NCBI RefSeq assembly: GCF_036588685.1
Contig: NC_086382.1
Coordinates: forward strand, 50,143,235-50,197,377
DNA from: Mytilus trossulus
Lineage: Eukaryota
DNA: 54,143 nucleotides
Direction of reading: 5' to 3'
The position numbers and the translations under genes were made by a program. The notes under the pieces are model-generated. The model was not told the origin of the DNA, searched no databases, and saw only the letters and a program-made list of their open reading frames with translations. The number at the start of each line of letters is the position of its first letter. Within the stretch, counting starts at the first letter, position 1. Shown piece by piece: positions 29,851 through 54,143 of the stretch.

Positions 29851-30651
29851 TAATGATTTTTATCTAATTTCCGCAGGTAAATGTGCCTTTGACCAAATTA
29901 GACACTAACGACTAAAACAACATATTTTGCAATAAAAACATGTATTGTTCTTCCACTAATCCCCCATGTAGGAATAGCCAGAATAGTAAAATACAAAATG
30001 TAGGAATAGCCAAATATTCATACTGAGGAATGTATCTGATATTAGAATGCAAGTTCTAATTATTTTGATACTACCCCAGTTATTATTCCCATTAATAAAA
30101 AACTAACAAGAATTTTTGAATTCACTGTAAATATGACTATTTATATCTAATTCTTCCTCAATTTATCCCTTTCTGCACCCATTGTATAAAAAAATTTAAT
30201 CAGCATGTGGTTTGTTTGATCTAAGTACTTCATTGGTTAAAATCCGATTATGACGTCGAATTTTCTTGCTTTCCTCTAAAATTCCTATTTTGACGGCATG
30301 AAAAAAGGCGACCATGCCTCAGGCGGCCATCATCATGACGTCACATAGAAAGAACACTTTATTTTGCAGATCATTCGAAAAGAAGGAATAAGTGTGCCCG
30401 CATATAATGTTAGAAAATCATTAGAGAAACAGATTCCACCACCAAATCTCGTGTAATACAATATTTATCCACTCATGACAGTTAAATTTAAAATATTTAA
30501 AACACTCTGGCAAGCCTCACGTTTTAAATTTGAAAATTTAACTTTCTCTAGTTGATTAATATTATATTACACTCGATGCAGCGGTAGAATCTATATGTTT
30601 TCCCAAATCCAACTAATAATTTCACTTGACTATTTACAAATTTATTTACAG

Positions 30652-31169
30652 AGTACACATGTTGTTTGTAATGACCCAGAAAAGGGAGATATCAGTAACA
30701 AATGTAAAATGGCCACAAAGTATGGATTACCAGTAGTGTCACTTGATTATATCCATGATTGTGTAGACCAGGGGAGACTACTCAGTTGTCTAGTTTATTA
30801 TATGTTTCTGGTTTATTTTCAGAGTACACATGTTGTATGTAATGATCCAGAAAAAGCAGATATCAGTTCAAATGTAAAATGGCCACAAAGTATGGAATAC
30901 CAGTAGTGCCGCTTGATTATATCCATGATTGTGTAGACCAGGGGAGATTACTCTGTTGTCTAGTTTGTTATATGTTTCTGGTTTATTTACAGTGTACACA
31001 TGTTGTTTGTAATGATCCAGAAAAGGCAGATATCAGTTACATGTACAAATGTAAAATGGCCACAAAGTATGGATTACCAGTAGTGTCACTTGATTATATC
31101 CATGATTGTGTAGACCAGGGGAGATTACTCTGTTGTCTAGTTTGTTATATGTTTCTTGTTTATTTACAG
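30652..31169 (+). repeat. Three extra tandem copies (units of about 171, 170 and 177 bp) of the 3-prime end of an intron plus the 5-prime 130 nt of the PARP4 BRCT exon. Each copy carries an acceptor but no donor.
   Basis: The units begin at 30652, 30823 and 30993. Each starts with ..tttatttacAG (a/t)GTACACATGTTGT.TGTAATGA.CCAGAAAAGG.AGATATCAG...ATGGCCACAAAGTATGGA.TACCAGT.GTG.CACTTGATTATATCCATGA.TGTGTAGACCAGGGGAGA.TACTC and then switches back to pyrimidine-rich intron-like sequence. Confidence 0.85.
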
Positions 31170-31368
31170 AGTACACATGTTGTATGTAATGACCCAGAAA
31201 AGGCTGATATCAGTTACAAATGTAAAATGGCCACAAAGTATGGATTACCAGTGGTGTCACTTGATTATATCCATGACTGTGTAGACCAGGGGAGATTACT
31301 CAATACAGATAATTACATCCTGGTTGGAAAAACAAAGTCACAAGAATTCAGCTCAGGAAAGATAACAG
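31170..31368 (+). CDS. PARP4: PARP4-like exon: BRCT domain C-terminal half (fourth and only complete copy). Ends phase 1 at donor ACAG|GTAAAAG.
   Basis: Translation is STHVVCNDPEKADISYKCKMATKYGLPVVSLDYIHDCVDQGRLLNTDNYILVGKTKSQEFSSGKIT. I aligned this to my recollection of human PARP4 as ..THIILDNADVLSQYQLNSIQKNHVHIANPDFIWKSIREKRLLDVKNYDP, which is not a database check. Acceptor AG at 31168-31169, donor GT at 31369-31370. Confidence 0.65.
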
Positions 31369-32478
31369 GTAAAAGAAAATGAAAAAAATAAACAAACTAA
31401 TTTTATAAACGGAAAAGGGGTATCAATCTCAATTTTAGCCTACTGTTTGTTTGAAGTTTTGAAACTTTTTTAAAATTAGAAATATTTTTTTCAATATTCT
31501 TAAGATTTCCAAAGTACAAATCTCTGAATACAATATGTATCACATTGGTTTTAAAAGGTAATGCTTGCGCAACTGATTCAATTTCTGATTTCTTCCCTTG
31601 TATGACTCTCTTTAGACCCTTCTGAAATTGTCAAAATCTATTTAAAAATTCAACCAATTTAGCATTGACTGGTGCCTGTAGGTTCAGATATCAAGATGCA
31701 AGAGTAAATTTGTAGATAACAAAATGTTATGACCTTAAACATGTTAAAAGGTATGTAATGCCTATTTATAATTTTAAATGGCTTGCAGACTTCTAATATT
31801 GTTCAGCAGGTCTGAACGTACTTACGGAAAATTAATATTTTATATTAATATATTATGCTTAATAGACAACTTTTGTGTTCGATGCATTTCCATCAAAAAC
31901 TCTTGTTTTTGTGAACGTCATTTGTGCGTCACTTTCATTCCTATGTTGAGTGAGTGGTTGGAAGACCACAATTCTATATTGTACGAATTATTTGGTAAAT
32001 TGAATTCTCAAAATTGACCATCAGCATTGCTGTCATTAGGGAATTGTCATTAAGTACTTACAGAACAGCCATTACTTCTAGTTTATCCGGCACAATAACG
32101 ATCACTAAGATGCTTGATGAATGTAAATAGTGCAGGGATACAGGCGACCCCCTCTATCTGGTAAATGACGTCATAAAGGCGTGTATAATTGACGAGTTTT
32201 TTCAGGTGACAGATGAACTCAAAAGTGGTCTATTATGTTATGTCCATTTATTGTAGAAGCGAAGTGTATTATTACACAACAAGGGTATCATCTGGGTCCT
32301 CATAATGGACACATTCTCCATTTATATCAATATTTATTTGTCTTAACAATACAACATTTACTTGGCTTACAGATGAGGTAAAAAGTAGCAGACATGTGAT
32401 GAATTGTTAAATATTAGAATATTTAGACATGATGAATATAAACAATGATAAAGATGAATGATTTGTTTTTATTTGCAG

Positions 32479-32621
32479 CCTCGAAATATCAGAGCAAAGA
32501 ACCCAAGAAGAAGAAATTTAAAATTGACCCTAAGAATGTTAAAGTTTGGAAGACAGAAGATAAAAATGCCCCAGAGTACAATGAAAAAGACTATGAAGTG
32601 GCCAAGTATGCCATATTTCAG
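32479..32621 (+). CDS. PARP4: PARP4-like exon, phase 1 in to phase 0 out. The donor is the non-canonical CAG|GCAAGG (GC-AG class).
   Basis: G(31368)+CC gives Ala. The translation ASKYQSKEPKKKKFKIDPKNVKVWKTEDKNAPEYNEKDYEVAKYAIFQ continues the frame exactly. KDYEVAKY matches the PARP4 motif I recall as DFEVAKY. Acceptor tttatttgcAG at 32477-32478. Confidence 0.55.
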
Positions 32622-33184
32622 GCAAGGAATAATTCTGGGTTTTTTTTCATTTTTTAGAAATTATAGAAATAAACAATTTTGAATTAGATTTAAAAAAATA
32701 AAAAAAGATAAGAGATGAAAGCAATTTAAATGATATTTTGCTTTTCATCTCTTTGTCTGTGCTGAGCTGGTAGTCAGATAGTATTTTAAATACTAGTTCT
32801 TAAGTCAGTAATTTGCACTGGAGCATTTTGTGTTTCCTGTTGTCCACATTTTTTTGTGATAACTTGAAGTTGATTTTACATTGAGTGTTTAAAAATTGGA
32901 TTCCCATCTATATGGAATACTTAGGAAAATTAGACACCCCGATGGATCTTAACTATTATTCTGCACAAATAAAAAGTATATATAAACTTGTAAGTGAGGA
33001 AAGTAAACTTAAAATACATATCAAGTCCTTTTCCATATTTCTGTGATTGATTTCATCAAAACCGATAATTATATATTAATTTTTTGGTTAATACATTTAA
33101 AAAAAATTTAATTGTATATTTGTGTCTGTTACAAAAGATTTTGGAACAAACCAATTTTTAAAGAAGTCTATTTTATTTATTTCA

Positions 33185-33415
33185 AAAGACCTACTGTGGA
33201 TTCATTTATTTTCGTGGGTATCAATTTTCGTGGAATGCTGAAAACTTGCATATTCGTGGATATTAGATTTCGTGGTTTTGCCAATCTCTGTATACAACGC
33301 CTATTGAAAATATGATATTCGTTGAACATTTGAATTCCTGGTTCACCCGTTCCCATGAAATCCACGAAAATTGATATCCAACGAATATTAATGAATCCAC
33401 AGTATATGTGCTGTG
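33185..33415. mobile_element. MITE of about 230 bp with 45-bp TIRs (ACTGTGGATTCATT...ATCAATTTTCGTGGA) and TA flanks. A related copy lies at 33880-34095.
   Basis: The left end actgtggattcatttattttcgtgggtatcaattttcgtgga is the reverse complement of the right end tccacgaaaattgatatccaacgaatattaatgaatccacagta. The second copy has the same termini. Both lie in a PARP4 intron. Confidence 0.6.
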
Positions 33416-34199
33416 TGTGTTTATTACTAAGCATACAATATATTTGCTTGTGAGAGAATTGCTCACTATTTGGTATGGGCTTTGCTCATTTTTGAAGGCT
33501 GTACGGTGATCTATAGTTGTAAATTTCTGTGTCATTTGGTCTCTTGTGGAGAGTTGTCTCATTGACAATCATATCACATCTTGTTTTTTTTATATATATA
33601 CAATATTCCTTATTAGTAAAACTTTAAATGATAGCTTACATGTTACTTATATTGTAGTTATATATTTCAGAAATATGACAAGTTAAAAGAGACGACACTG
33701 TTTTATAATTTGGAGATACATGTAGCTGATCCTGTAGATTTAAACAGATCAGACTGTTATAGATTTAGAGTATTTTCACACCATGGTTCTACAGCTGAGA
33801 TTGAGGTAGATCAGATTATCAGATTGTAATTGTTTGATTTCCAAATTTTAAGAGGATTCATAAGTTAATAAACAAGTACTGTGGATTCATTATTATTCTT
33901 TGAATACCAATTTTAATGGATTCTGGGGTACAGGTGAACCACAAAATATAAGTTTGAAGAATAGAAAATTATCTATTGACTAAATGTGTGAAGAATTTGG
34001 CAAAAAACATGAAATTAAATATCCACAAACATATTTCCTTAAGCCACGAAAATTGGTGGTACCCATGAAAATGAATGAATCAATAGTAGCTGTCAAATTA
34101 ATATAATTGATTAGTTTATAAGTTGCGCTGTGCAATATTTTTATACAACCGCAAAAGTTGGAAAAAAATTTGGTCACATATTGGTATGACATTTGTGTC

Positions 34200-35140: not shown

Positions 35141-35555
35141 TAGGTAAATGTCCAATTTAAAATTTTAAGTTTTTAATTTTAAGTTTTAAGATCACATTCA
35201 TTCTGTGTCAGAAACCTATTTTGTGTCAACTATTTAATCACAATCCAAATTCAGAGCTGTGTCAAGCTCAATTGTTGTGTCCATACTTGCCCAAACTGTT
35301 CAGGGTTCGACCTCTTTGCTTGTAAAAATCAGCGCCCTGCGGAGCATTTGGTTGTTCATGAAATCACCATTGTTCATATGTCTCTGATTGATACAAACAT
35401 TGATTATATATTTTGTTAACCTGTATGTATTATTGAGATCTAATATCTGAACATTTACAGTTAATTCTAAAATGAAAAAAATAACACTAGTCTGAAGTGT
35501 GGAAAAAACTCCATATAAGGACCAGTCTGTAATACGATTTGATATTATTTTTCAG

Positions 35556-35708
35556 AGAGGTGTTACAGAATGTCGGTATGTAGCCACATCAGATGATGCC
35601 CTACATGTGTATACCTATTTACATACTGAACAAACTCGACCTCCATACAACATGGATATTATATACCAACCCTTGTCAAGAAAAATAGGTTCTACAAACT
35701 TTCAAAAG
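35556..35708 (+). CDS. PARP4: PARP4-like exon, phase 0 in and out
   Basis: Acceptor ttatttttcAG at 35554-35555. Translation RGVTECRYVATSDDALHVYTYLHTEQTRPPYNMDIIYQPLSRKIGSTNFQK. Donor AAAAG|GTAGGT at 35709. Similarity to PARP4 here is weak, so assignment rests on splice-site quality and phase continuity. Confidence 0.45.
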
Positions 35709-36309
35709 GTAGGTCGTATAAAAATTTGATAAAATATATAGAAATAAGAAGATGTGGTATGATAGTCCAGTCAAACTAAGATTTAACCTCAAACTAATTG
35801 CAACAAAAAATGTTTTAGTTCTAATCTATAGTAGTATGCCCCATAAAATCTAACTTCAGGAAAACTCAAAATCAGCATTTTTAATTTCCAATGGAAATTA
35901 ACATTGGAAGGGGAGATAACTCTTGCAAAAATGAGTCTTTTTTTTGGTCAGTTTTTGGTTGTTTTTCTTGAAATTTATGTAAAGTATGATACTTTGATGG
36001 GGTTATAAGTTTGTATTTGACTATATTATATAATCTCCTGCTCATGAAATGTACAAAATTGAAGTGTTATGGGTAGTTTTATTTTTTGTCGAGTCTTAGA
36101 CTTTAGTCGAAAAAGCGGGACTAAGCGATCCTACATTTCATCGTCGGCTTAGGCGGCGTCCACAAATATTCACTTTGTGGTTAAAGTTTTTGAAATTTTA
36201 ATAACTTTCTTAAACTACACTGGATTTCTACCAAACTTAGACAGAAGCTTGTTTATGATTATAAGATGGTATCCAGTAGTAAATTTTGTAAAAATAAAAT
36301 TCCATTTTT

Positions 36310-37140
36310 TTCGTATTTTACTTAAGGTCAAGGAACAGTAAATGGGCTATGTCGCAGATATTGCTAAAAAATTGCATACAACCTTGGCTCGTTGAACTAC
36401 AACTGAAAGTCGAAAAAATTATACATTTATCTCTTTTATTTTCTGAAAAATTGCAGATTGATTTCTCTTAATATGGGTGAACATTTGTATAGGAAGCACA
36501 TAAAATCGACGAAAAACCTTCTAAAATTTGTCTTTAAATCGCCAAATCTATAATTCTACTCCATAGATTTTTCTTAAAAAACTATATATTGTTGACACAT
36601 AAATTTCTGTTTTAATGATATAAAATAATCATAGGGTCACCGACTTCGTTTTTTGTCTAATAATCATTTTGCTACCTTATTGGTAGTGAAAAACGTCAAA
36701 AATCAACGTTTTACGGCCTGCAACGCGATAACGTTACGATTATTTCGACGTTTTGTTGGATTTTTTCACAAAGAACGCATCTTTGAATGATGTATACCGT
36801 AAAAACGAAGTCGGTGACCCTATCTTTATTTTGCATCATTATAACGGAAATTTATGTATCAACAACATATAGTTTTTTAAGAAAAATCTATGGAGTAGAA
36901 TTAGAGATTTGGCGATTTTAAGACAAATTTTAGAAGAGTTTTCGCCGATTTTATGTGCTTTCTATACAAATGTTCACCCATTTTGTAAGAATTCAATCAG
37001 TAATATTTCAAATGATAATTGAGATAAATGCATTTTTATTTCGATTTTCAGTTGAAGTTCATCGAGCCAGAGCTGTATGCCAAATTTTACTGAAATCTAT
37101 GACATAGCCCATTTACTGTAACTTGACCTTAAATGGACTT
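36310..37140. repeat. Near-perfect long palindrome: two arms of about 330 bp in inverted orientation around a 160-bp spacer
   Basis: 36310-36650 (gtcaaggaacagtaaatgggctatgtcgcagatattgc...aatcatagggtcaccgacttcgtttttt) is the reverse complement of 36810-37140 (aaaacgaagtcggtgaccctat...gacatagcccatttactgtaacttgacc). The spacer carries its own small inverted repeats (acgtcaaaaatcaacgttttacgg / ccgtaaaaacgaagtc). Confidence 0.85.
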
Positions 37141-37900
37141 AGTTTTTTCTGCGGGGAAACATAACATCCACTCTGTGGTTAAAGTTTTTAGAATTTTAAT
37201 AACTTTTTTAAACTATTCTGGGTTTGTACCAAACTTGGACAGAAGCTTGTTTATGATCATAAGATAGTATCGAGAAGTAAATTTTGTAAAAATGAAATTC
37301 CATTTTTTCCATATTTTACTTATAAATGGACTTAGTTTTTTCTTCGGGGAAACATAACATTCACTCTGTGGTTAAAGTTTTTAGAATTTTAACAACTTTT
37401 TTAAACTATCCTGGGTTTGTACCAAACTTGGACAGAAGCTTTTTTATGATCATAAGATAGTATTCAGAAGTAAATTTTGTTTAAAAAAAAAAAAAAAAAT
37501 CTCGTATTTTACCTTTAAATGGACTTAGTTTTTTCTGCGGGGAAACATAACATTCACTCTGTGGTTAAAGTTTTTAGAATTTTAATAACTTTTTTAAACT
37601 ATTCTGGGTTTGTACCAAACTTGGATAGAAGCTTATTTTTGAGCATGAGGTAGTATCTAGTAAATTTTGTAAAAAGATAACTCCATTTTTTCTGTTTGTT
37701 AATTTTTAAATGGACTTAGATTTTCTTCCAGTGAACATTACATACAGTCCGCAGTTGAATTTTCGAAACATTTATTAGATTCATTAACTATCCTAGATTT
37801 TTACCAAACTTGGACAGAAGCTTCTTACAATCATCAGATAGTATCAAGAGGAATATTTTTATTGATTTTTTTCCTCAGTTTTGTTGAGCCTGTGATTTAC
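37130..37900 (+). repeat. 190-bp tandem array, about 4 units. One further unit sits upstream of the palindrome at 36150-36330.
   Basis: The unit is aaatggacttagttttttctgcggggaaacataacattcactctgtggttaaagtttttagaattttaataacttttttaaactattctgggtttgtaccaaacttggacagaagcttgtttatgatcataagatagtat..agaagtaaattttgtaaaaa. The motif ggttaaagttttt is shared with the MITE at 51018-51300. Confidence 0.8.
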
Positions 37901-38988
37901 AGTAAAAGTAGGCGAGACACTGGTTCCGCGGAACCCTTACAAATTTTTTTCATGCATTTTTCATTAAAGAAATTTCAAATTTAAAGCTTTGTCAGCATTT
38001 TGAAAAAATAATGTGAAAATTTGGTATTGTTTATATCTGTATATGATATTTTTTTAACAACATAATTATCTAAAGAAAGTTTAAACCACAAAAAGAGGAA
38101 TACATGCTCAATTTTTTTTTAATTAAATTTGAGATTCTTAACCTTGACATGTTGAAAAATTCAATAAATGGTCAACTAATGAATTACGAAATCTAGATTA
38201 TAGCTTGATAAATTATATGAAAACACCTTTAGAGTTGTTTGTTATACTCTAAAGACTGCTAAAAAATCTAGAATCAATACATTCTGATGAATAGAAGCGG
38301 TAAAGTTATAATTTTGTATCAATTTTTATTGACATTTCTGCCTTTTTTGCAAGTTATCTCCCTTTTCAATGCAAATTTCCATAGGAAAATTTAAATGGTG
38401 ATTTTTTTAGTCTTCCTCAAGTTAGATTTTATGGGACTTTTTTCTGTGTATATTTGGGGTTTTAATGCTTAAGATTAAAACTTAAAAATCTTCTGTTGCA
38501 ATTACTTTCAGGTTAGGGTCAAATTTATACTAGATTGATTGCTAATGACATTGAAGTTAACAACTATAGCCTATAGGTCACTGTTAAGGTTTTCTTGAAT
38601 GAGCAAAACCCATACTGTATAGTCAAGGCCTTGAAATTACCATTGTAAAGCAATTGTAACAAGAAACCTATGGCCTGATTTATGTACAAAACAATGCACA
38701 AAAAACTGATATGCAGCAGTAAACAACAACCACTGATTACTTGGGACCAGCACTTACAGAATGTGGTGGGGTTAAACTATAGTTTGCTGGTGTCAATACA
38801 AATTTATATAATCATTAGAAGTTACAACCTATGCTTAAACTTAATTGATTTAGCATGTCAATTACCCCTGCTACTATGAGCCTGAATATTGAGAACCAGA
38901 CTAAATATTTTCTGCAATTGGGTGAATTTATTGCTTAGTTTGCCTATTCTTAAAAGCAAATTTAAGTGAGGTAAAAAATGTTTTTCAG

Positions 38989-39126
38989 ATGGTAGAAATT
39001 TATGGTATGGACAGTCGTCCCTTGTCACCATCAACTGTAGAGTTAATTGAACATATTTGGAAAGAGGCTACAGGTGAAATAGAACAGGTGATAAGTGTAC
39101 CATTACAGAGCATCAAGTTAGAACAG
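38989..39126 (+). CDS. PARP4: PARP4-like exon: PARP regulatory/helical domain part, phase 0
   Basis: Acceptor tgtttttcAG at 38987-38988. Translation MVEIYGMDSRPLSPSTVELIEHIWKEATGEIEQVISVPLQSIKLEQ aligns to my recollected human ..LSQEVSDLVEMIWAEALGHLEHMLLKPVNRISLNDV. Donor CAG|GTATGC at 39127. Confidence 0.65.
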
Positions 39127-39843: not shown

Positions 39844-40011
39844 ATAGAGAAAGCAGAAGCTATTCTGTTGATGATAAAGGATTGTAAGGATGACTCAAGA
39901 GTAGTAAAATTGTTTGAAGAATTTTATGAAGCATTACCACACAAAAACAAAAATCAACCTGTCAGTTCACAGAGGAGATCATGGCTATCAAAGAAACAAG
40001 ATATATGTCAG
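39844..40011 (+). CDS. PARP4: PARP4-like exon: helical domain, phase 0
   Basis: Acceptor tatattatAG at 39842-39843. Translation IEKAEAILLMIKDCKDDSRVVKLFEEFYEALPHKNKNQPVSSQRRSWLSKKQDICQ aligns to my recollected human SKAEGILLLVKAALKNGETAEQLQKMMTEFYRLIPHKG...LLAKKADLCQ. Donor CAG|GTAATA at 40012. Confidence 0.7.
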
Positions 40012-40429: not shown

Positions 40430-43400
40430 CAATTAGTGACCTTCATTATACCCCACACAACGGGTTGCGGAGGATATAATGTTTTTGACCCGTCCATCCT
40501 GAAGTCCGTCTGTCAGTCCGTCAGTCAGTCCTGTTTCTTGTCATCGCAATTCCTCTCAAACCACACAACAGAATTTCACGAAACCTTTTCAGATCATAAG
40601 GACATACTATGTAGTTGTGCATATCAACCGAAAATTGCGATTCAATTTTTTTTCTAGGAGTTACACTCTTTTGAACTTATTTACTTTAATGTACTGCTGC
40701 AACAGTTTGTCATCGCAACTCCTCTCAAACCACACAACAGAATTTCACGAAACCTTTTCAGATCATAAGGACATACTATGTAGTTGTGCATATGGACGGG
40801 AAATTGCGATTTAATTTTTTCTAGGAGTTATGCCCCTTTGAACTTATTTACTTTAATGTACTACTGCAACAGTTTGTCATCACAACTCCTCTCAAACCAC
40901 ACAACAGAATTTCACGAAACCTTTTCAGATAATAAGGACATACTATGCAGTTGTGCATATCAACGGGAAATTGCGATTCAATTTTTAGCTCACTTGGCCC
41001 TTCGTTCGGGCCAAGTGAGCTTTTCCCATCACTTTGCGTCTGGCGTCCGTCGTCGTCCGTCGTCTGTCGTCCGTCGTCTGTCGTCCGTCGTCGTTGTTAA
41101 CTTTTACAAAAATCTTCTACTCTGAAACTACTGGGCCAAATCAAACCAAACTTGGCCACAATCATCATTGGGGTATCTAGTTTAAAAAATGTGTGGCGTG
41201 ACCCGGTCAACCAACCAAGATGGCCGCCACGGCTAAAAATAGAACATAGGGGTAAAATGCAGTTTTTGGCTTATAACTCAAAAACCAAAGCATTTAGAGC
41301 AAATCTGACATGGGGTAAAAATGTTTATCAGGTCAAGATCTATCTGCCCTGGAATTTTCAGATCAATCGGCCAATCGGTTGTTGGGTTGCTGCCCCTGAA
41401 TTGGTAATTTTGAAGAAATTTTGCTGTTTTTGGTTATTATCTTGAATATGATTATAGTTAGAGATAAACTGTAAACAGCAATAATGTTCAGCAAAGTAAG
41501 ATCTACAAATAAGTCAACATGGCCAAAATGGTCAGTTGACCCGTTTAGGAGTTATTGCCCTTTATAGTCAATTTTTAACCATTTTTAGTTAATTAAAGTA
41601 ATCTTTTACAAAAATCTTCTCCTCTGAAACTGCTTGGCCAAATTAATCCAAACTTGGCCACAATCATCTTTGGGGTATCTAGTTTAAAAATGTGTGGCGT
41701 GACCTGGTCAACCAACCAAGATGGCCGCCACGGCTAAAAATAGAACAAAGGGGTAAAATGCAGTTTTTGGCTTATAACTCAAAAACCAAAGCATTTTGAG
41801 GAAATCTGACATGAGATAAAAATGTTTATCAGGTCAAGATCTATCTGCCTGAAAATTTTCAGATGAATCGGTCAATCGGTTGTTGGGTTGCTGCCCCTGA
41901 ATTGGTAATTTTGAGGAAATTTTGCTGTTTTTGGTTATTATCTTGAATATTATTATAGATAGAGATAAACTGTAAACAGCAATAATGTTCAGCAAAGTAA
42001 GATCTACAAATAAGTCAACATGACCAAAATGGTCAGTTGACCCGTTTAGGAGTTATTGCCCTTTATAGTCAATTTTTAACCATTTTTCGTAAATTAAAGT
42101 AATCTTTTACAAAAATCTTCTCCTCTGAAACTACTTGGCCAAATTAATCCAAACTTGGCCACAATCATCTTTGGGGTATCTAGTTTAAAAAATGTGTGGC
42201 GTGACCTGGTCAACCAACCAAGATGGCCGCCACCGCTAAAAATAGAACATAGGGGTAAAATGCAGTTTTTGGCTTATAACTCAAAAACCAAAGCATTTTG
42301 AGGAAATCTGACATGGGATAAAAATGTTTATCAGGTCAAGAACTATCTGCCCTGAAATTTTCAGATGAATCGGTCAATCGGTCAATCGGTTGTTGCCCCT
42401 GAATTGGTAATTTTGAGGAAATTTTGCTGTTTTTGGTTATTATCTTGAATATTATTATAGATAGAGATAAATTGTAAACAGCAATAATGTTCAGCAAAGT
42501 AAGATCTACAAATAAGTCAACATGATCAAAATGGTCAGTTGACCCCTTTAGGAGTTATTGCCCTTTATAGTCAATCTTTAACCATTTTTCATAAATCTAA
42601 GTAATCTTTTACAAAATCTCCACTGAAACTACTAGGCCACAATCATCTTTGGGGTATCTAGTTTGAAAAATGTGTCCGATGACCTGGCCATTCAACCAAG
42701 ATGGCCGCCACGGCTAAAAATAGAACATAGGGGTAAAATGCAGTTTTTTGCTTATAACTATGAAACCAAAGCATCTAGAGCAAATCTGACAAGAAGTTAA
42801 ATTGTTAATCAAGTCAATATCTATCTGCCCTGAATTTTTCAGATGAATTGGACAACTGGTTGTTGGGTTGCTGCCCTCCAATTGATAATTTTTAAAGAAA
42901 TTTTGCCGTTTTTGGTTATCTTGAATACTATTATAGATAGCGATAAACTGTAAACAGCAATAATGTTCAGCAAAGTAAGATCTACAAATAAGTCAACATG
43001 ACCTAAATGGTCAATTGACCCCTTAAGGAGTTATTGCCCTTTATAGTCAATTTTTAACAATTTTCATTAATTTGGTAAATTTATGTAAATTTTTACCAAA
43101 TATAGTTCTCTGTTACTAATGGGCAAAGTTCATGATAGATATAATTGTAAGAAGCAAAATCGTTCAGTAAAGTAAGAACTTCAAACACATCACCATCACC
43201 AAAATACAATTTTTTCATGAATCCATTTGTGTCCTTTGTTTAATATGCACATAGACCAAGGTGAGCGACACAGGCTCTTTAGAGCCTCTAGTTTTTCTAG
43301 GAGTTACGCCCCTTTGAACTTATTTACTTTAATGTACTACTGCAACATTTTGTCATCTTAACTCCTCTCAAACCACACAACAGAATTTCACGAATCCTTT

Positions 43401-43460
43401 TCAGATAATAAGGACATACTATGCAGATGTGCATATTGACAGGAAATTATGATGCAATTT
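40430..43460 (+). mobile_element. Composite non-autonomous element of about 3 kb in a PARP4 intron. It comprises terminal direct repeats of about 170 bp (3 copies at 40540-41000, 1 copy at 43300-43460), a 14-bp-stem hairpin (40987-41021), a (TCCGTCG)n GC-rich tract (41035-41095), an internal 4 x 480 bp satellite (41100-43060) and a 240-bp tail.
   Basis: Terminal unit: ..tcctctcaaaccacacaacagaatttcacgaaaccttttcagatcataaggacatactatgtagttgtgcatat.aacgggaaattgcgattcaattttt. Hairpin: agctcacttggccc ttcgttc gggccaagtgagct. 480-bp unit: taatcttttacaaaaatcttctcctctgaaactacttggccaaat...ccaagatggccgccacggctaaaaatagaac...ccctttatagtcaatttttaacc. The ORF-track proteins in this interval (40436.., 40617.., 40784.., 41152..) are repeat artefacts. 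Confidence 0.7.
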
Positions 43461-43718
43461 TTTTTTCTTACACATATTTTATTTCTCCAATGACAATGTG
43501 GGGACGTGGTGTATGTGAGTGTGCTCACTAAGGTTCTATAACTGTTCATGTATATAGTGATGACAGGACAAAATTAGATCGTAACACATTTTTAAGTCTA
43601 AAAGTAAGGAAGTGCTCTATTTCAAAATTAGAGTGTTTCTTTCTTATCATTTCCCTGACTTAAAATATTTGTGTATGTTTTTGACATGATGTATGTATTT
43701 TAATATTATGTATTTCAG

Positions 43719-43870
43719 ATGATTAAAGATATGGTGGCTGTGAGTGAGTCTACAAACTGGTCGACTAGAAGTAGTACAGAGGCCAAGTATAAAGCATTAC
43801 GATGTAGACTGGATGGTTTAGAGATTACAGATACAGAATATAAACAGATCAAGGAGCACATTATACAGTC
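43719..43870 (+). CDS. PARP4: PARP4-like exon: helical domain end, phase 0 in to phase 2 out, with the weak donor ACA|GTTTGT
   Basis: Acceptor tgtatttcAG at 43717-43718. Translation MIKDMVAVSESTNWSTRSSTEAKYKALRCRLDGLEITDTEYKQIKEHIIQSLK aligns to my recollected human IRDMVNVCETNLSKPNPPSLAKYRALRCKIEHVEQNTEEFLRVRKEVLQ. Only this donor position gives an open frame into the next exon. Confidence 0.55.
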
Positions 43871-44489
43871 TCTAAAACAGTTTGTATTTTCAATACAATA
43901 CATATACATTATTTTGTTGTTGTTGATGATTCATTAACATTTAATGTATTTGTATATATCAATGGTAAACCATGAAATTTGGGTGCAACAAATACTTAGT
44001 TTTGACATTGTCATATTTATAATTAAGAACATATCTAGAATCAAGAATCTTATTAATTAGGTCTTACTGAAATCATCATGATTGGGTCAAAACAATTCAA
44101 TTTTTCCAAGGTTGTTTATAATTTTAGATAACAGCTGATTACAGGAGATTAATAGGTAATAACAGATAAGATAAATGTTTATACCAATGTCTGGATTGTC
44201 ACACTGAAAAGGATTCAATGTCACCTATAGATTCTTGGGTTATTGTGTTTTTGGATGCTGATATTTAATCCAAATCTTAAAAAGATAACATATTGAAATC
44301 ATTGGATTTAATACTTGTAGTATAAACAAATTTTCTGCTTCCAGTAAATTCTCAATGGATTGTTTTTTGTTTTCTTATTTTTTAGGCGGTAGTATATAGC
44401 TATTAAGTTTATTGCTGGTGAATTCAGGATTTACAACCGTAAGTAAAATATGATGAAGATTTTGATTTCCTTCCCCTTTTTTATTTCAG

Positions 44490-45426: not shown

Positions 45427-45525
45427 GGGTTTACTTTTGCCTAAAATAATTGTTGATGATTTTGGCGGAACAAGAACAGATGCAGGAATGCTGGGAAATG
45501 GTGTCTACTTTGCCAGCTCTGCGAG
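45427..45525 (+). CDS. PARP4: PARP4-like exon: catalytic domain containing the Tyr of the triad, phase 2 in and out
   Basis: AG+G gives Arg. Translation RGLLLPKIIVDDFGGTRTDAGMLGNGVYFASSA aligns to my recollected human RGLLLPKVVEDRGVQRTDVGNLGSGIYFSDSLS. Acceptor ctttttAG at 45425-45426, donor GAG|GTATGT at 45526. Confidence 0.75.
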
Positions 45526-45933: not shown

Positions 45934-46437
45934 TTATTTCAGACTATTGTTATATTCCATAGTAGCAGACTTGGCATTCTTTAAAAGAACTGCACTTGGT
46001 TTCAGTTCATAGCAATGCAAATGTGTATTCATTTTACAAGAAAGAAGAGCACACAGTGTATCCTTATTAAGATCAGCCCTAAACTCTGTAGCTATTTTCT
46101 TTACTAAAGAAAATGCCCTCTCACTGTCTGCATTGCTGTTTGGCAAAACCAGTAATGTTTTAGCAAGTTTTGACAAAACAAAAAATCTTGGCTTGTTAAG
46201 AAAAATGTCATGCAACTTGGACATTTCTCCCCAAAATGTACCAATGTCAGTTTCAGGGGAAGTGCAAAGTGGAAGTTCATCTAATGGGGTCAACTGATAG
46301 TCACTGAACTCATCTTGTAGCTTGTTGAAAATATCGTTACGTAGCTCAGGTAAACAAGTCCTACATTTTGACTTTTGATTACATTGAAAAAGACCGATAA
46401 AACCGAAGGTCGTATTACTTCTAAATACCGGAAACAA
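45934..46437 (-). mobile_element. hAT-superfamily transposase remnant (C-terminal hATC dimerisation region), internally deleted. The adjacent subterminal ACGGGTG repeats at 46440-46560 are discussed under findings.
   Basis: The 167-aa ORF ..LPELRNDIFNKLQDEFSDYQL..FWGEMSK..LAKTLLVLPNSNADSERAFSLVKKIATEFRADLNKDTLCALLSCKMN carries the diagnostic hATC signature (..NADSERAFS..R..L....L..LL). The N-terminal DDE part is absent. Confidence 0.65.
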
Positions 46438-46724
46438 TTCCGGTCAGAAATCCGGGTGAAACGGGTAATGTTAGAAATTCCCGGGACCCGCCGGGTTAAG
46501 AAAAACTCCCGGGTGAGAGGTGAAAATAACGGGTGTCACCCGCAAAAAACGGGTGATTTGACAGGTATGAAGTGCTGGTAATTCAAATTTGCATAATTCC
46601 GGACATTTTAGTACGTCAGCTCTTTATATTTTGTGTACTAAAATGTTAACAAGATATACAATTGAAAAAAGTACTAAAACAATGTAAGATTCAAAACATA
46701 ATATGATTTATTTTTATCTGACAG

Positions 46725-46908
46725 TACTAGTATACAATACTCAGACCAAAGTAAATGTAAGGGAACCAGAATGATGCTAGTCAGTAATGTTGCCCTTGGC
46801 AACTGTAAAGATTTCACTGAATACCACAAAGATCTACAGGGGCCTCCAGAGGGGTATGAAAGCTGTCATGGTGTAGCGTCATCAGAAGATCAACCTTCAG
46901 AATTCAAG
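46725..46908 (+). CDS. PARP4: PARP4-like exon: catalytic domain, phase 2 in to phase 0 out
   Basis: AG+T gives Ser. Translation STSIQYSDQSKCKGTRMMLVSNVALGNCKDFTEYHKDLQGPPEGYESCHGVASSEDQPSEFK aligns to my recollected human STSIKYSHPGETDGTRLLLICDVALGKCMDLHEKDFSLTEAPPGYDSVHGVSQTASVTTDFE. Acceptor tctgacAG at 46723-46724, donor AAG|GTACAC at 46909. Confidence 0.75.
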
Positions 46909-47871: not shown

Positions 47872-48019
47872 GATGATGAATATGTAATTTACAATACAAA
47901 CCAGCAAATCGTAGAGTACTTAGTGGAGTTTTCTATGGAAGGGGATATCAAACAATCGTTTAACATAGAATCAATGTCCACCATGGAAGAAGATGTAGAT
48001 TTAGATGTTAACCAGCAAA
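47872..48019 (+). CDS. PARP4: PARP4-like exon: end of catalytic domain containing the catalytic Glu (DDEYVIY), phase 0 in to phase 1 out
   Basis: Translation DDEYVIYNTNQQIVEYLVEFSMEGDIKQSFNIESMSTMEEDVDLDVNQQ aligns to my recollected human DDEFVVYKTNQVKMKYIIKFSMPGDQIK. Acceptor ttctacAG at 47870-47871, donor AAA|GTAAAAT at 48020. Confidence 0.7.
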
Positions 48020-48487: not shown

Positions 48488-48621
48488 TTGACTTAAAAGA
48501 TGTTTCTGGAATAAAGAATCCGATGGACAAAGTAGAACCAGGATTGGTATCTACCTCAGGAGAATCATGTGTTTTGAAATCAGTCCATATCAGAGCTCAG
48601 CTAATGGACTTGGCCTCAAAG
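48488..48621 (+). CDS. PARP4: PARP4-like exon: linker and start of VIT domain, phase 1 in to phase 0 out
   Basis: A+TT gives Ile. Translation IDLKDVSGIKNPMDKVEPGLVSTSGESCVLKSVHIRAQLMDLASK aligns to my recollected human ..LVPLEDVHIKGRIIDTVAQ. Acceptor tatttcAG at 48486-48487, donor AAG|GTATGA at 48622. Confidence 0.65.
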
Positions 48622-49546: not shown

Positions 49547-49771
49547 GTTGTAGTGCTACAAGAGTACCACAACACTAGTACCTCTACTCTCGAAGCTAAG
49601 TATGTGTTCCCATTAGATGATATGGCTGCTGTTTGTGGATTTGAAGCTTTTATTAACGGTAAACATATCGTGGGAGAAGTAAAGGAGAAGGAGACCGCTC
49701 ACAAGGAATACAAGAAGGCAATAAGTGAAGGACATGGAGCCTATCTCATGGATCAGGATGAAGAAACTCCG
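49547..49771 (+). CDS. PARP4: PARP4-like exon: VIT domain core, phase 0
   Basis: Translation VVVLQEYHNTSTSTLEAKYVFPLDDMAAVCGFEAFINGKHIVGEVKEKETAHKEYKKAISEGHGAYLMDQDEETP, versus my recollected human ..EAKYIFPLDDKAAVCGFEAFINGKHIVGEIKEKEEAQQEYLEAVTQGHGAYLMSQDAP. Acceptor tattttAG at 49545-49546, donor CCG|GTACAT at 49772. Confidence 0.85.
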
Positions 49772-50370: not shown

Positions 50371-50526
50371 GATGTATTTACTGTCAGTGTCGGTAATTTG
50401 CCACCAGGGTGTGTGGCCCTTATCAAGATAACTTATGTATCAGAATTACAAGTAGAAGGAGAATTGATTAACTTCACAATTCCTGGATCTGTGGCTCCTT
50501 GGAAACAGGAAGCCAGTAATACTGAG
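50371..50526 (+). CDS. PARP4: PARP4-like exon: VIT domain continuation, phase 0
   Basis: Translation DVFTVSVGNLPPGCVALIKITYVSELQVEGELINFTIPGSVAPWKQEASNTE, versus my recollected human DVFTVSVGNLPPKAKVLIKITYITELSILG..ATVAPWQQDKALNE. Acceptor tttctggcAG at 50369-50370, donor GAG|GTAAGG at 50527. Confidence 0.85.
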
Positions 50527-50801
50527 GTAAGGGAGATAACAAGAGCAGAGGGTGAAATAATAAATACTTTCATATTCCTATTGAATCAGGAAGATAGAAA
50601 TATTTTTATTGGGATATCTTTTCGGAAGATGATGATATTAAATACAAACATTTATAAAAAAAATGAAATATAAGTTTGTCATAGAAGAAAAGTTCATTTG
50701 AATCTACAGATTTCATTTTAGAATTAGAATTTTATATTGGACAGAGAGCTGAGTTATAGTTTTATTGAAACACGTATGTTGTCATTGTACATGTATTACA
50801 G

Positions 50802-50891
50802 GGTGATGACAGCTGTACCATCAAAGTGTCAATACAGATGCCATTTGATATCAGAACAGTAACATGTCCAACTCATAAAATTATGAAAAAG
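50802..50891 (+). CDS. PARP4: PARP4-like exon, phase 0
   Basis: Acceptor gtattacAG at 50800-50801. Translation GDDSCTIKVSIQMPFDIRTVTCPTHKIMKK, versus my recollected human SFSLTMSIEMPYVIEFIFSDTHELKQK. Donor AAG|GTAAGT at 50892. Confidence 0.7.
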
Positions 50892-51017
50892 GTAAGTAAC
50901 TCTCTTTATGTTGCTTGAGGAATTTTTCTGTGCATGGTTTTATTTTTCAGCTATGAAAATCTTTCAAATTTTGACAAATTGAGTGTTTTGAAATGTCTGA
51001 TATTTTCAAGCTCCTTT

Positions 51018-51300
51018 TTATGCCCCACCTACGATAGTAGAGGGGCATTATGTTTTCTGGTCTGTGCCTCCGTTCATCTGTCTGTGTGTCCGTTCGTCCA
51101 TGCGTCCGTTCGCTTCAGGTTAAAGTTTTTGGTCAAGGTAGTTTTTGATGAAGTTAAAGTTACATCAACTTGAAACTTAGTACACATGTTCCCTATGATA
51201 TGATTTTTCTAGTTTTAATTCCAAATTAAAGTTTTGACCCCAATTTTCACGGTCCACTGAACATAGAAAATGATAGTGCAAGTGGGGCATCCATGTACTA
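51018..51300. mobile_element. MITE of about 280 bp with termini TATGCCCCAC / GTGGGGCATC and a TCCGTTCG-rich tract, related to the repeat families at 36150-37900 and 41035-41095
   Basis: ttatgccccacctacgatagtagaggggcatta...gtgcctccgttcatctgtctgtgtgtccgttcgtccatgcgtccgttcgcttcaggttaaagttttt...gtgcaagtggggcatcc. It lies in a PARP4 intron. The ORF-track protein 50934..51173 is an artefact of this element. Confidence 0.5.
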
Positions 51301-51654
51301 TGGACACATTCTTGTTAGCTTGATGGATTAGAAAACCATAAGTATCATAAGACTTACATATAGCATTCTTCAAATGTTATATAGACCTTATCTTTTTTTA
51401 TCAGCAGATTTGCTTTTTTTATTGTGTTTTTGTTAACTTCATCATTTTTAATACATATTTGAAGACTGCCAAATTTGACTCGTTTGATATTCAAAAGAAT
51501 ATTAAGATAATAGCAACAGCAGTTCAAAGATCAGTTCTATTTTGAAAAAATACAAAATATGAATTGAATGGAATAACAAGATAGCTTTATATTGATTAAT
51601 TTTCTGTAAGTATATATAGAAATGAAGTAAAGTTTGTGGGTATTTTTGTTTCAG

Positions 51655-51792
51655 AGTACAGCTACAAGATGTACAGTTTCAATGACAGAAGGACAGACTA
51701 TTTCCGATGGATTTCAATTGCTGATAGGACTGGCTGAGATACATGTACCAAGGATGTGGGTCGAGGTAGATAATGAAGGCAAACAAACTGAG
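51655..51792 (+). CDS. PARP4: PARP4-like exon, phase 0
   Basis: Acceptor tttgtttcAG at 51653-51654. Translation STATRCTVSMTEGQTISDGFQLLIGLAEIHVPRMWVEVDNEGKQTE, versus my recollected human TDCKAVISTMEGSSLDSSGFSLHIGLSAAYLPRMWVEKHPEKESE. Donor GAG|GTACAT at 51793. Confidence 0.8.
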
Positions 51793-52074
51793 GTACATTA
51801 TCAAAAGATGGGGAAATAGCTAGTTAAGTATGTGCAAAACAATTTCTTCATTTTTCAAAGTCAATTCATGGCCAAATATTAATTATAAATTATATTATCC
51901 ATATAAAAAGGTTCGAATATGTAATCCAAAAAGTATGACCTTTTTAACTTCTTATGTGAACTCTCAGAACTAAATTTTGTAACCTTTCAACACTTACATA
52001 GGGGGTAAAAAAAGGAACCATGAAAGTTATGAACTCTTGGTGGTAAAAAAATTCCATCTTTTACATATTTTTAG

Positions 52075-52261
52075 GCAGCCATGTTGACATTTTATCCAGA
52101 ATTTGAAGCGGCAGAAGACAACGAAACAGAAATAATACTTGTCCTTGACCTTTCAAATTCAATGAAGGGGAAAGCTTTGTTAGAAGCCAAGAAAATTTTG
52201 CTGCTAACACTGAATCATCTGTCAGCACATACTCTGTTTAACATTGTATTATTTGGCACAT
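52075..52261 (+). CDS. PARP4: PARP4-like exon: start of vWA domain with the MIDAS-like DxSxS motif, phase 0 in to phase 1 out
   Basis: Translation AAMLTFYPEFEAAEDNETEIILVLDLSNSMKGKALLEAKKILLLTLNHLSAHTLFNIVLFGT, versus my recollected human ACMLVFQPDLDVDLPDLASESEVIICLDCSSSMEGVTFLQAKQIALHALSLVGEKQKVNIIQFGT. Acceptor ttttAG at 52073-52074, donor ACAT|GTAAGT at 52262. Confidence 0.85.
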
Positions 52262-52611
52262 GTAAGTACTGGTACTTGAATAGGTGTCTTAAAATGTTGC
52301 GGTCCTGAATGATCCTAAATTATATTTCATGCTTGGTGTTTTACTTTTACAAATTATGACTTGTCAAAGGTAGCAAGAGGTCAATGTCAAAGGTAGAAAG
52401 AGGTCAATTTCAAAAGAAGTGGGAGGTCAATGTCACAGCTTTACAAATATATCTATAACAATGCATCATCTTTTAATATGAATATATCATCGGTAGCTGT
52501 TCATTTGTAATACTGTACAGTATATGTAATAGTTTACAGTATATGTATATGTAACAAAAAATGCCCATTTTAAAAGTTTCTCTTGTAATTATAAATTGTC
52601 AATTTAAACAG

Positions 52612-52685
52612 GTTACAGAGAATTATTTCCTACAGGCCAGAAAAAGTCCAAGTCAACTCTGAAAATTGCTGAGCAATTTGTTAAG
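52612..52685 (+). CDS. PARP4: PARP4-like exon: vWA, phase 1 in to phase 0 out
   Basis: T+GT gives Cys. Translation CYRELFPTGQKKSKSTLKIAEQFVK, versus my recollected human GYKELFSYPKHITSNTMAAEFIM. Acceptor taaacAG at 52610-52611, donor AAG|GTATGT at 52686. Confidence 0.7.
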
Positions 52686-53019
52686 GTATGTTAAAATCTC
52701 AAACTCAGTTCAATATGCATTATATCAAGGGCACTAAAATTTGACGTGCAGCCTCTTATGTAAAACAGATCTACATTCAAAGAGGTAGCATAGAGTTAAA
52801 CTTGGTTTCTGAACTTTTTTTGGGTAGGAAGCTAGGAAAATTTAAAAAAAGGATAAAATGTGATGAACATGTCTCATATACTTCCTGTGTTTAATGTTTA
52901 TTTCTAATTTTCTTTTCATTTAATGTTTAATCGTCCTGATTATGCATGAAATATTTGCCACTCGTTGTTAAGCAACCTACAATCAATCAATCAAATAATG
53001 TAAATACAGTGCAACCTGA

Positions 53020-53345
53020 CTAATCCTAAACCTGAGTATTCCAATATCCGGCATTAACTGACACTGACATCATGGTCCAAATAAATTCCTAGCCTTGCAG
53101 AAAAAAAATGAGTATTCCAACATCCTGCATTAACTGACACTGACATCATGGTCCCAATAAATTCCTATCCTTGCAGAAAAAAACCGTGTATTCCAACATC
53201 CTGCATTAACTGACACTGACATCATGGTCCCGATAAATTCCTATCCTTGCAGAAAAAAACTGAGTATTCCAACATCCTGCATTAACTGACACTGACATCA
53301 TGGTCCCAATAAATTCCTATCCTTGCAGAAAAAAAACTGAGTATT
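53020..53345. repeat. Intronic minisatellite with a 75-bp unit, about 4.5 copies
   Basis: (a)aaaaaa.tgagtattccaacatcctgcattaactgacactgacatcatggtcccaataaattcctatccttgcag repeats head to tail. Each unit ends in a pyrimidine tract followed by CAG. Confidence 0.85.
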
Positions 53346-53618
53346 CTGACACCCTGCTCAATCCAACATTTTTTTTCTGGTCCCCCAGTGTGTCGGATAA
53401 CACAGGTTACACCGTATATTGAAAAAGTTTTCATATTCAGTGAGTAGCATTTATGAATACTTACAATCTGTTGTTTACAGTAAATCTTGATGAGACTCCT
53501 CTGTATAACATTAATATAAGTATCTTTACAGATTAAAATGATATAAGCATATGCATTACTCATCCTTTTCTACACAACTTGACTTGTTTCCTTCCAATTC
53601 TGTCTTTTTTGTTTTTAG

Positions 53619-53806
53619 GATATCCAAGCCAACATGGGTAGCACAGAGGTATATCGTCCCCTCCACAGTTTCTTCCTTCTTAAGCCAGAGAACTCATTAA
53701 GAAATGTCTTTATATTATCTGACGGCCATATTAACAATGAGGAGACGACTCTTAAAGCTGTTCGTGACAACTGTCAACACACAAGGATCTTTACATTCGG
53801 TGTCAG
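53619..53806 (+). CDS. PARP4: PARP4-like exon: vWA continuation, phase 0 in to phase 2 out. The gene continues beyond the window end.
   Basis: Translation DIQANMGSTEVYRPLHSFFLLKPENSLRNVFILSDGHINNEETTLKAVRDNCQHTRIFTFGV, versus my recollected human ..WKTLRYLSLLYPARGSRNILLVSDGHLQDESLTLQLVKRSRPHTRLFACGIG. Acceptor gtttttAG at 53617-53618, donor CAG|GTAACT at 53807. Confidence 0.8.
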
Positions 53807-54143
53807 GTAACTGTAGAGAAAACTTTTATATTAAAAGATAATTTAGTGTTTTGTTTGTCATGTTTGCACCACTGCTTTATTTTAGGCAGATTGGCACTTA
53901 AATTTAGATCTACTACAGTAATGAAAAGTTGCTTGCTGAAATGTAAAAAGATTGCCATTTGTCCCTTTCTAATAGATCCTGCGGAAATTTCTCATAGACA
54001 AGGAAGGTTAAAATTTTATGTTCCTTACGGTAACAAGAATATATTAAAAGCTATGTATATTTCTTTTTAATTTGAATATTTTCAACATGTACCGTATGTA
54101 TTTTTGAAAAAAGAAAAAAAAGTCTATTGTCATAAATACTAAT

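Follow-up and report, generated by a model that had tools for sequence, protein, structure and literature searches.

The question raised by this locus is whether the short open stretches scattered along a piece of mussel DNA belong to one functional gene for PARP4, the vault PARP. The window, by which is meant the whole stretch analysed here, comprises 54,143 nucleotides from Mytilus trossulus, and with a probability of about 95% it would hold the 5′ two-thirds of such a gene, functional and intron-rich, from a Mytilus mussel. When open stretches bounded by AG and GT are spliced, 20 coding exons on the plus strand (26835-53806) give a stop-free, phase-consistent product of 996 residues, and a tblastn search using the two annotated proteins nearest to this product finds the same exons again. 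The exons, with the main evidence for each, are the following:

26835-26963, plus strand: exon 1, residues 1-43, N-terminal half of BRCT; ATG at 26835, donor AAG/GTAAAC; tblastn with protein P0001, 97.7%
31170-31368, plus strand: exon 2, residues 44-109, C-terminal half of BRCT; phase 0 in, 1 out; tblastn, model, M. galloprovincialis locus L001
32479-32621, plus strand: exon 3, residues 110-157, linker, then the first part of the WGR-like domain; GC donor; model, L001
33671-33805, plus strand: exon 4, residues 158-202, WGR-like; tblastn, model, profile alignment
35556-35708, plus strand: exon 5, residues 203-253, C-terminal part of the WGR-like domain; tblastn, model, profile alignment
38989-39126, plus strand: exon 6, residues 254-299, helical domain; tblastn, model
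39844-40011, plus strand: exon 7, residues 300-355, helical domain; tblastn, model; the most diverged exon (81% amino acid identity to P0001)
43719-43879, plus strand: exon 8, residues 356-408, last part of the helical domain and first part of ART; tblastn, model, L001
44490-44630, plus strand: exon 9, residues 409-455, ART; H443 in LLFHAS
45427-45525, plus strand: exon 10, residues 456-488, ART; Y483 in GNGVYFA
46725-46908, plus strand: exon 11, residues 489-550, ART; tblastn
47872-48019, plus strand: exon 12, residues 551-599; catalytic E553 in DDEYVIY, then linker
48488-48621, plus strand: exon 13, residues 600-644, VIT start; tblastn, model, Pfam
49547-49771, plus strand: exon 14, residues 645-719, VIT core, with the motif 49595-49693 inside; model, Pfam
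50371-50526, plus strand: exon 15, residues 720-771, VIT end; tblastn, model
50802-50891, plus strand: exon 16, residues 772-801, between VIT and vWA; tblastn, model
51655-51792, plus strand: exon 17, residues 802-847, between VIT and vWA; tblastn, model
52075-52261, plus strand: exon 18, residues 848-909, vWA start, MIDAS motif D-L-S-N-S; model, Pfam
52612-52685, plus strand: exon 19, residues 910-934, vWA, a short exon of 74 nt; tblastn, splice sites, model
53619-53806, plus strand: exon 20, residues 935-996, vWA; donor CAG/GTAACT; tblastn, model

The gene leaves the window within the vWA domain, at about the equivalent of residue 1000 of human PARP4, and some 330 more residues follow in P0001. 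An earlier sequence-only reading had placed the gene at 30595-54143, as eighteen canonical exons and one with a GC donor in a single phase-consistent frame. This by-eye reconstruction is accurate: 19 of the 20 coding exons lie in that interval (18 with GT donors, one with GC), and both the stop-free spliced model and tblastn with the annotated proteins agree with the frame. At its starting point, 30595, stands an ATG that opens a spurious ORF within a decoy copy of exon 2, and coding exon 1 lies upstream of it.

The domains identify the product. Matches above the Pfam cutoffs were obtained for VIT (E=8.7e-37, residues 629-741), the PARP catalytic domain (E=7.4e-30, residues 394-571 of 996+), VWA_3 (E=1.3e-18, residues 866-995, cut by the window end) and, with exon 1 included, BRCT over residues 2-92 (E=3.5e-11, 43.6 bits, cutoff 21.3; BRCT_2, 44.9 bits, cutoff 27.3). 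From the originally proposed interval alone, the BRCT match stays below the Pfam cutoff. Among the Pfam families by which the earlier claim was to be checked, PARP_reg is the one that falls short, its 23.8 bits lying under the cutoff of 26.8, as it also does in the vertebrate PARP4s scanned. The helical domain ahead of ART is nevertheless present, since the crystal construct of the PARP4 helical and catalytic domains (8sx1_A) aligns over its residues 12-329 with E=7.7e-72. VIT followed by vWA lies C-terminal to ART. The architecture proposed earlier (BRCT, helical domain, catalytic domain with H-Y-E, VIT and vWA) was thus correct but incomplete: besides the first half of BRCT in exon 1, it missed a WGR-like domain that follows BRCT and precedes the helical domain (residues ~128-235), and which hhalign aligns colinearly through the WGR of PARP2/3-like proteins. 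In this mussel domain S-H-H-G-S replaces the WGR motif, and Pfam WGR finds no match in the product. Human PARP4 also carries a WGR-like domain at this place in which W-G-R is not conserved (PMC10711553).

The same order of BRCT, WGR-like, helical, ART, VIT and vWA domains is found in human PARP4 (PDB 11jf, 9bw6, 9bw7, 8sx1; PMC10711553, PMC12280208), with which the mussel product shares the H-Y-E triad and an overall identity of ~37-40%. The VIT core is far closer (~90%): in the 33-residue motif encoded at 49595-49693 on the plus strand, 30 of the 33 residues are as in the human protein, which bears out the near identity noticed from the sequence. In an alignment of 33 orthologues, the 21-22 that extend over H443, Y483, E553 and the MIDAS DxSxS all conserve these positions. 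The residue after the catalytic histidine is Ala (H-A-S) in the mussel and Gly in human PARP4; H-A-S instead of H-G-S was considered as an unusual trait and rejected, being the common state among aligned PARP4 orthologues. In a search of 5.8 billion proteins, the top matches carry the name PARP4 or PARP4-like in every case where a family name is supplied by the source. The same search lists PF26156 and PF26166 for vertebrate PARP4s only.

VIT and vWA are also present in ITIH proteins, and the ART domain resembles those of other PARPs; the exons might accordingly encode a non-PARP protein of the ITIH/VWA5A type, or a PARP1/2/3-type enzyme misjoined to neighbouring VIT/vWA exons. ITIH1 does match in the PDB (1.7e-10), on the VIT segment only, as do PARP2 (about 1e-23) and PARP1 (1e-16). 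The best PDB match is human PARP4, in one colinear alignment from BRCT through vWA (residues 46-919, E=1.6e-154); the ART and VIT exons are joined by phase without a break, and annotations from dozens of animals show this architecture within a single gene. The outcome that was to refute the earlier claim, a best match to a family such as ITIH or VWA5A with no PARP catalytic match, did not occur. Either of these origins is extremely improbable, and the PARP4 orthology proposed from the sequence agrees with Pfam, the PDB, the large protein search and the conserved triad alike.

Two groups of related proteins are known in Mytilus. The window product belongs with the first, its identity over all 996 residues being 96.1% to VDH98080.1 (M. 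galloprovincialis) and 96.2% to CAG2207108.1 (M. edulis), annotated as 'poly [ADP-ribose] polymerase' or 'PARP2_3_4'. The second (M. trossulus XP_063404518.1, M. galloprovincialis XP_076077943.1 and M. edulis CAG2256489.1) has the same architecture, is colinear over the 996 residues and shows 84-85% identity to the window product. It is probably a paralogue of the first, because it forms a separate cluster alongside it in both M. galloprovincialis and M. edulis. At the nucleotide level the comparison covers one orthologous locus, L001 of M. galloprovincialis, which has a counterpart of exon 1 at 10001-10129 and shares with the window an upstream mucin-like neighbour gene. Length, phase and order agree there for each of the 20 exons, with 91-98% nucleotide identity, a correspondence that cannot be chance. 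Against this orthologue dN/dS is 0.10 (no domain above 0.20), and dS is 0.18, a value that points to a different species or a deep haplotype. The two loci differ in three extra partial copies of exon 2 in the window, in its GC instead of GT at the exon-3 donor, and in their repeat insertions; introns 1, 4, 5, 7 and 10 are larger in the window, whereas M. galloprovincialis has the larger introns 2, 8, 11, 14 and 16.

Several splice sites deserve attention. The GC donor called earlier at 32622 is found there, as the first intron base after exon 3 (CAG/GCAAGG), with the acceptor tttcag/AAA at 33671; the orthologous donor in L001 is GTAAGG. Read from the sequence, this intron has GC at +1/+2 in a donor whose consensus is strong in all other respects, and its acceptor is AG; GC-AG introns with such a consensus are functional. 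The weak donor proposed at 43871 did not hold, since that position has neither GT nor GC and the GTs that fit the phase lie at 43868 and 43880. The donor at 43880 (ACA/GTTTGT), itself weak, is backed by both Mytilus protein lineages and by L001. Exon 11 could begin at either of two in-frame acceptors, 46725 or 46731, which lie 6 nt apart; the second would drop two residues. For the GC donor, the weak donor of exon 8, the acceptors 46725/46731 and the four acceptors of exon 2, we infer use from homology only.

The last of these belong to exon 2 itself and to a repeated part of it within intron 1:

30641-31158, plus strand: three partial tandem copies of exon 2, from Tandem Repeats Finder (TRF) and from sequence and frames

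TRF reports an array at 30641-31301 with a period of 177, 3.8 copies and 91% matches. In each unit (period about 171-177 nt), ~11 nt come from the acceptor and ~134 nt from the beginning of the exon, and ~32 nt are filler. The acceptor-like sites at 30652 and 30823 read into a stop, while the copy at 30993 is in frame and as strong as the real exon-2 acceptor. Exon 2 is single-copy in L001, and the triplicated fragment with its acceptor copies is a lineage-specific feature of intron 1. It is conceivable, if rather unlikely, that these fragments are not inert and yield an isoform with an altered BRCT domain or tune expression down by unproductive splicing, maybe as a step in the divergence of the Mytilus PARP4 lineages. 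If so, use of 30993 would insert 59 residues duplicating part of the BRCT fold, and use of 30652 or 30823 would give transcripts with premature stops.

The same traits could be taken as marks of decay. Three decoy acceptors stand upstream of exon 2, two of them leading to premature stops, the exon-3 donor appears mutated from the GT of M. galloprovincialis, and two PARP4-like lineages ~85% identical suggest possible redundancy, so that the window might hold a non-functional copy belonging to one of the two. This is very unlikely: the 996 codons contain no stop or frameshift, every catalytic and MIDAS residue is intact, and GC-AG introns of this kind work. The reading as a pseudogene was rejected on the intact frames and the low dN/dS across all domains, and a functional PARP4 gene is preferred.

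Its introns also hold repeats and the remnant of a transposase:

35840-38435, strand not assigned: repeat block in intron 5, flanked by ~92-nt inverted repeats
40538-43465, strand not assigned: composite repeat in intron 7, made of 2.7 copies of a 167-nt unit, then about 4 copies of a ~500-nt unit, then a further 167-nt unit
45934-46437, minus strand: remnant of a hAT transposase in intron 10, C-terminal dimerisation region (ORF; Pfam Dimer_Tnp_hAT, E=2.9e-9, 37 bits, cutoff 21.4)

Within the intron-5 block, an 811-nt palindrome occupies 36322-37132 and 3.8 copies of a 193-nt unit form an array at 37129-37846. The ~500-nt unit of intron 7 recurs in intron 1 at 27214-27935. Young transposable elements had been claimed for nearly every intron; repeats do occur in 11 of the 19 introns and the hAT remnant in a twelfth, but the copies are only 80-95% identical. 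That remnant is the sole protein-coding trace of a transposable element detected by Pfam on ORFs in the window, where five other intronic or intergenic ORFs gave no Pfam match. A scan of the whole window with Rfam gathering cutoffs and ARAGORN returned nothing, neither tRNA-derived SINE heads nor intronic ncRNA genes. The intron arrays, with units of 76, 135, 167, 193 and ~500 nt in 2-4 copies that recur elsewhere in the window and in L001, resemble the tandem-repeat non-autonomous elements of bivalves, such as Helentron-associated satDNA-like arrays (PMC7492417) and tandem-repeat MITEs (PMC3879986); neither element termini nor a family assignment came out for the arrays in the window. The introns would carry non-autonomous repeats with internal tandem arrays, typical of bivalve genomes.

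From work on the human enzyme, the product would be a mono-ADP-ribosyltransferase whose BRCT domain would bind nucleic acid (vault RNA in humans) and whose VIT-vWA part would mediate protein contacts. It would reside in vault particles through a C-terminal region past the window end. That the presence of PARP4 implies vault biology, as the sequence-only reading held, is a reasonable inference; neither the MVP nor the TEP1 gene lies in the window. MVP is an abundant gill protein of M. edulis by mass spectrometry (PMC5302490), and the distribution of PARP4 tracks that of vaults (PMC2964712, PMC4245714). In the human protein the MVP-binding MINT region occupies residues 1562-1724 (PMC12280208), equivalent to a part beyond the window end. 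MINT was not matched by phmmer in the full-length mussel relatives, whose similarity to human PARP4 stops at ~residue 1216, and the C-terminal tails of the two lineages have no detectable MINT; in the M. edulis models they hold 14-3-3/actin or EF-hand/Snf7 fragments. That invertebrate PARP4-like proteins carry C-terminal fragments of 14-3-3, actin and ubiquitin was considered as a new observation and set aside, such fragments having been described in 2014 (PMC4245714).

PARP4 orthologues with such an architecture are known throughout animals except insects and nematodes (PMC2964712, PMC4245714), and the mussel gene is already known from the deposited M. galloprovincialis and M. edulis sequences. 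As a conserved gene that the annotations of related mussels already include, it is ordinary and of little importance beyond annotation. Its practical value would lie in a checked exon map, with the true first coding exon, the decoy copies of exon 2, the short vWA exon, the GC donor and the tandem acceptor, which could guide the annotation of the assembly.

The window is AT-rich (33% GC) and contains a PARP4 gene that is ordinary and conserved, and for which annotation already exists. A first model was assembled from stop-free stretches of the + strand, joined through AG acceptors and GT or GC donors that agree in phase, and it reads open throughout without any stop. When the two closest database proteins were used in tblastn searches, the same exons were recovered together with two additional ones:

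26835-26963, + strand: coding exon 1 (aa 1-43), found by tblastn, upstream of the interval 30595-54143 that the sequence-only reading had assigned to PARP4
52612-52685, + strand: short 74-nt vWA exon, found by tblastn, with splice sites read in the sequence

The final model comprises 20 coding exons (26835-53806; 2990 nt, 996 codons, zero stops), with all introns bounded by AG. The gene is truncated in the window, because the intron that follows the exon 20 donor (CAG/GTAACT) runs past its end, with an expected ~330 or more codons beyond it. For the interval 30595-54143, the sequence-only reading had described 18 exons with GT donors and one with a GC donor, a count of 19 that is matched exactly; its reconstruction of the gene was accurate, and the start it gave, 30595, coincides with the ATG that opens a spurious ORF.

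The domains of the predicted protein, as detected with Pfam, are the following:

aa 2-92: BRCT (E=3.5e-11) and BRCT_2 (E=1.4e-11)
aa 289-373: PARP_reg (23.8 bits, slightly below the 26.8 cutoff)
aa 394-571: PARP catalytic domain (E=7.4e-30)
aa 629-741: VIT (E=8.7e-37)
aa 866-995: VWA_3, cut off by the window end (E=1.3e-18)

Among all PDB sequences, searched with the first 866-aa model (lacking exons 1, 19, and 20), the top match is full-length human PARP4, in a single colinear alignment over human residues 46-919 (E=1.6e-154). It is followed by crystal constructs of the PARP4 helical and ADP-ribosyltransferase domains (7.7e-72), PARP2 (about 1e-23), and PARP1 (about 1e-16). A VIT/vWA protein of the ITIH or VWA5A type without a PARP catalytic match would be the alternative to PARP4; since human PARP4 ranks first in the PDB and ITIH1 matches the VIT segment only (1.7e-10), the identification as PARP4 stands. 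In a large protein collection, every best match for which the source names a family is called PARP4 or PARP4-like. At the head stand Mytilus galloprovincialis VDH98080.1, at 96% identity, and M. trossulus XP_063404518.1, at 84%, with oysters next at about 56%. The 33-residue VIT motif said to be nearly identical to the human one lies at 49595-49693 on the + strand and shares 30 of its 33 residues with human PARP4. Between the BRCT and helical domains, exons 3-5 encode a block of about 110 residues, left unnamed by the sequence-only reading, which in profile-profile comparison is colinear with the Pfam WGR domain of PARP2/3-like proteins and has S-H-H-G-S at the position of their WGR motif. The same BRCT-WGR-CAT organization, likewise with W-G-R residues that are not conserved, has been described in human PARP4 (PMC10711553).

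Across 22 aligned orthologues, which range from molluscs to mammals, the catalytic residues H443 (in LLFHAS), Y483 (in GNGVYFA), and E553 (in DDEYVIY) are conserved, as is the D-x-S-x-S MIDAS motif of the vWA domain. The Ala after the catalytic His was considered as a peculiarity and rejected, this being the usual state among PARP4 orthologues. The orthologous M. galloprovincialis locus (L001, the gene encoding VDH98080.1 in UYJE01000975.1) has all 20 exons, identical in order, length, and phase, at 91-98% nucleotide identity, and the window protein is equally near those of M. galloprovincialis and M. edulis (96% identity each). Relative to L001, dS is 0.18, dN 0.0185, and dN/dS 0.10 (Nei-Gojobori, 994 aligned codons), with domain values of 0.20 at most; the gene is under purifying selection and is not a pseudogene. 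That dS and the equal 96% identities together indicate that the window comes from a Mytilus genome other than the two deposited ones. The fastest-evolving coding part is exon 7 (39844-40011, helical domain), which shares 81% of its amino acids with M. galloprovincialis and 53% with the lineage-2 protein. Codons 281-360 show 13 non-synonymous versus 7 synonymous differences, and despite exon 7 the helical domain as a whole has a dN/dS of 0.20.

Three splice sites deserve comment. The exon 8 donor proposed at 43871 has neither GT nor GC. Phase-compatible GTs lie at 43868 and 43880, and the latter is supported as the predicted donor because the residues SLKQ are kept in both Mytilus protein lineages and L001 carries the same GTTTGT. 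The GC donor reported at 32622 is indeed present (CAG/GCAAGG); because M. galloprovincialis has GT at the orthologous position, it is a lineage- or allele-specific T-to-C change, with its use as a donor predicted. Finally, exon 11 has two in-frame acceptors 6 nt apart, at 46725 and 46731 (CAG/TACTAG/TAT, 46718-46731). The former yields S-T-S, the residues also present in human, M. trossulus, and M. edulis, while in M. galloprovincialis (L001 21969-21982), owing to a 1-nt insertion (TACCTAG), the downstream acceptor alone is in frame, which explains the two-residue difference between the annotated proteins.

The sole unusual local feature is a partial triplication of exon 2 with decoy acceptors. 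At the end of intron 1 lies a 177-nt tandem repeat (3.8 copies, 91% alike), which contains:

30641-31158: incomplete copies of exon 2, three in tandem, each with its own acceptor copy

Each extra unit comprises three pieces, namely the final ~11 nt of the acceptor, ~134 nt from the start of exon 2, and a filler of ~32 nt, and only the last copy (31170) reaches the rest of the exon and the donor. In M. galloprovincialis exon 2 is single-copy and the three partial copies are missing. Its upstream flank corresponds to that of the first window copy and its downstream portion to the last copy, so the array arose within the window's lineage, by internal tandem duplication. Identities of 92-96%, both among the copies and with the M. 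galloprovincialis exon, show that the duplication is not recent. If exon 1 were joined in phase 0 to the decoy acceptor at 30652 or 30823, the reading frame would meet a premature stop; joined to that at 30993, it would stay open and gain 59 residues.

The introns had been described as riddled with young transposable elements in nearly every case. With a library limited to the window and L001, matches to other non-orthologous positions cover no less than 9.3 kb of the 24.0 kb of intron (39%) and fall in 11 of the 19 introns. A twelfth, intron 10, carries a DNA-transposon remnant:

45934-46437, - strand: 167-aa ORF, remnant of a hAT transposase C-terminal dimerisation domain (Pfam E=2.9e-9)

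A description as riddled with repeats holds, and 'young' and 'nearly every' are too strong; the copies are 80-95% identical. The PARP4 introns contain no intact ORF for a transposase or a reverse transcriptase. Several blocks are short tandem arrays inside dispersed units (unit sizes 76, 135, 167, 193, and ~500 nt), an organization known from bivalve elements of the Helentron and MITE types (PMC7492417, PMC3879986). Because intron sizes differ from L001 in both directions (4206 vs 966, 3707 vs 798, and 763 vs 3056 nt), insertions and deletions must have continued since the two lineages split.

Upstream of PARP4, both the window and L001 have a threonine/serine-rich tandem-repeat gene, which indicates conserved synteny:

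11801-19015, + strand: uninterrupted 2404-aa Thr/Ser-rich ORF

This ORF looks mucin-like, has no Pfam match, and is built of ~121-aa (363-nt) tandem units (11.3 copies, 79% alike). It accounts for a strongly skewed 40% GC block, and shares ~80% nucleotide identity with its M. galloprovincialis counterpart. Other arrays are a 79-nt satellite at the window start (48-991; 12 copies, 90% alike) and a 27-nt array (26099-26368; 9 copies) ~470 nt ahead of the start codon of PARP4.

Two PARP4-like lineages, ~85% identical, are found in Mytilus. They are probably paralogues, because both occur in M. galloprovincialis and M. edulis, and the window gene belongs to that of VDH98080.1 (P0001). The PARP4 duplications listed in PMC4245714 are those of frog, sea urchin, and Trichoplax alone. 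Past the conserved ~1200-aa core, invertebrate PARP4-like proteins carry tails made of housekeeping-protein fragments (lineage-1 P0084, aa 1330-1555; P0014, P0017, P0019, and P0008; lineage-2 P0091). Mussel, hemichordate, and brittle star tails have the C-terminal half of 14-3-3 and then the first ~50-60 residues of actin, the amphioxus tail a 14-3-3 fragment and no other, the snail tail ubiquitin, and that of Mytilus lineage 2 fragments of EF-hand and Snf7. Earlier work had described such added 14-3-3, actin, and ubiquitin domains (PMC4245714).

Regarding vaults, the MVP-binding MINT domain of human PARP4 spans residues 1562-1724 (PMC12280208). The window stops at the equivalent of about residue 1000, and the alignment of full-length mussel relatives with human PARP4 goes no further than about residue 1216. 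For the protein encoded here, residence in vaults is a plausible prediction. Clade 5 PARPs with this architecture are found in vault-bearing animals (PMC2964712, PMC4245714), and MVP is an abundant gill protein of M. edulis by mass spectrometry (PMC5302490); the general link between PARP4 and vaults is supported by this literature.
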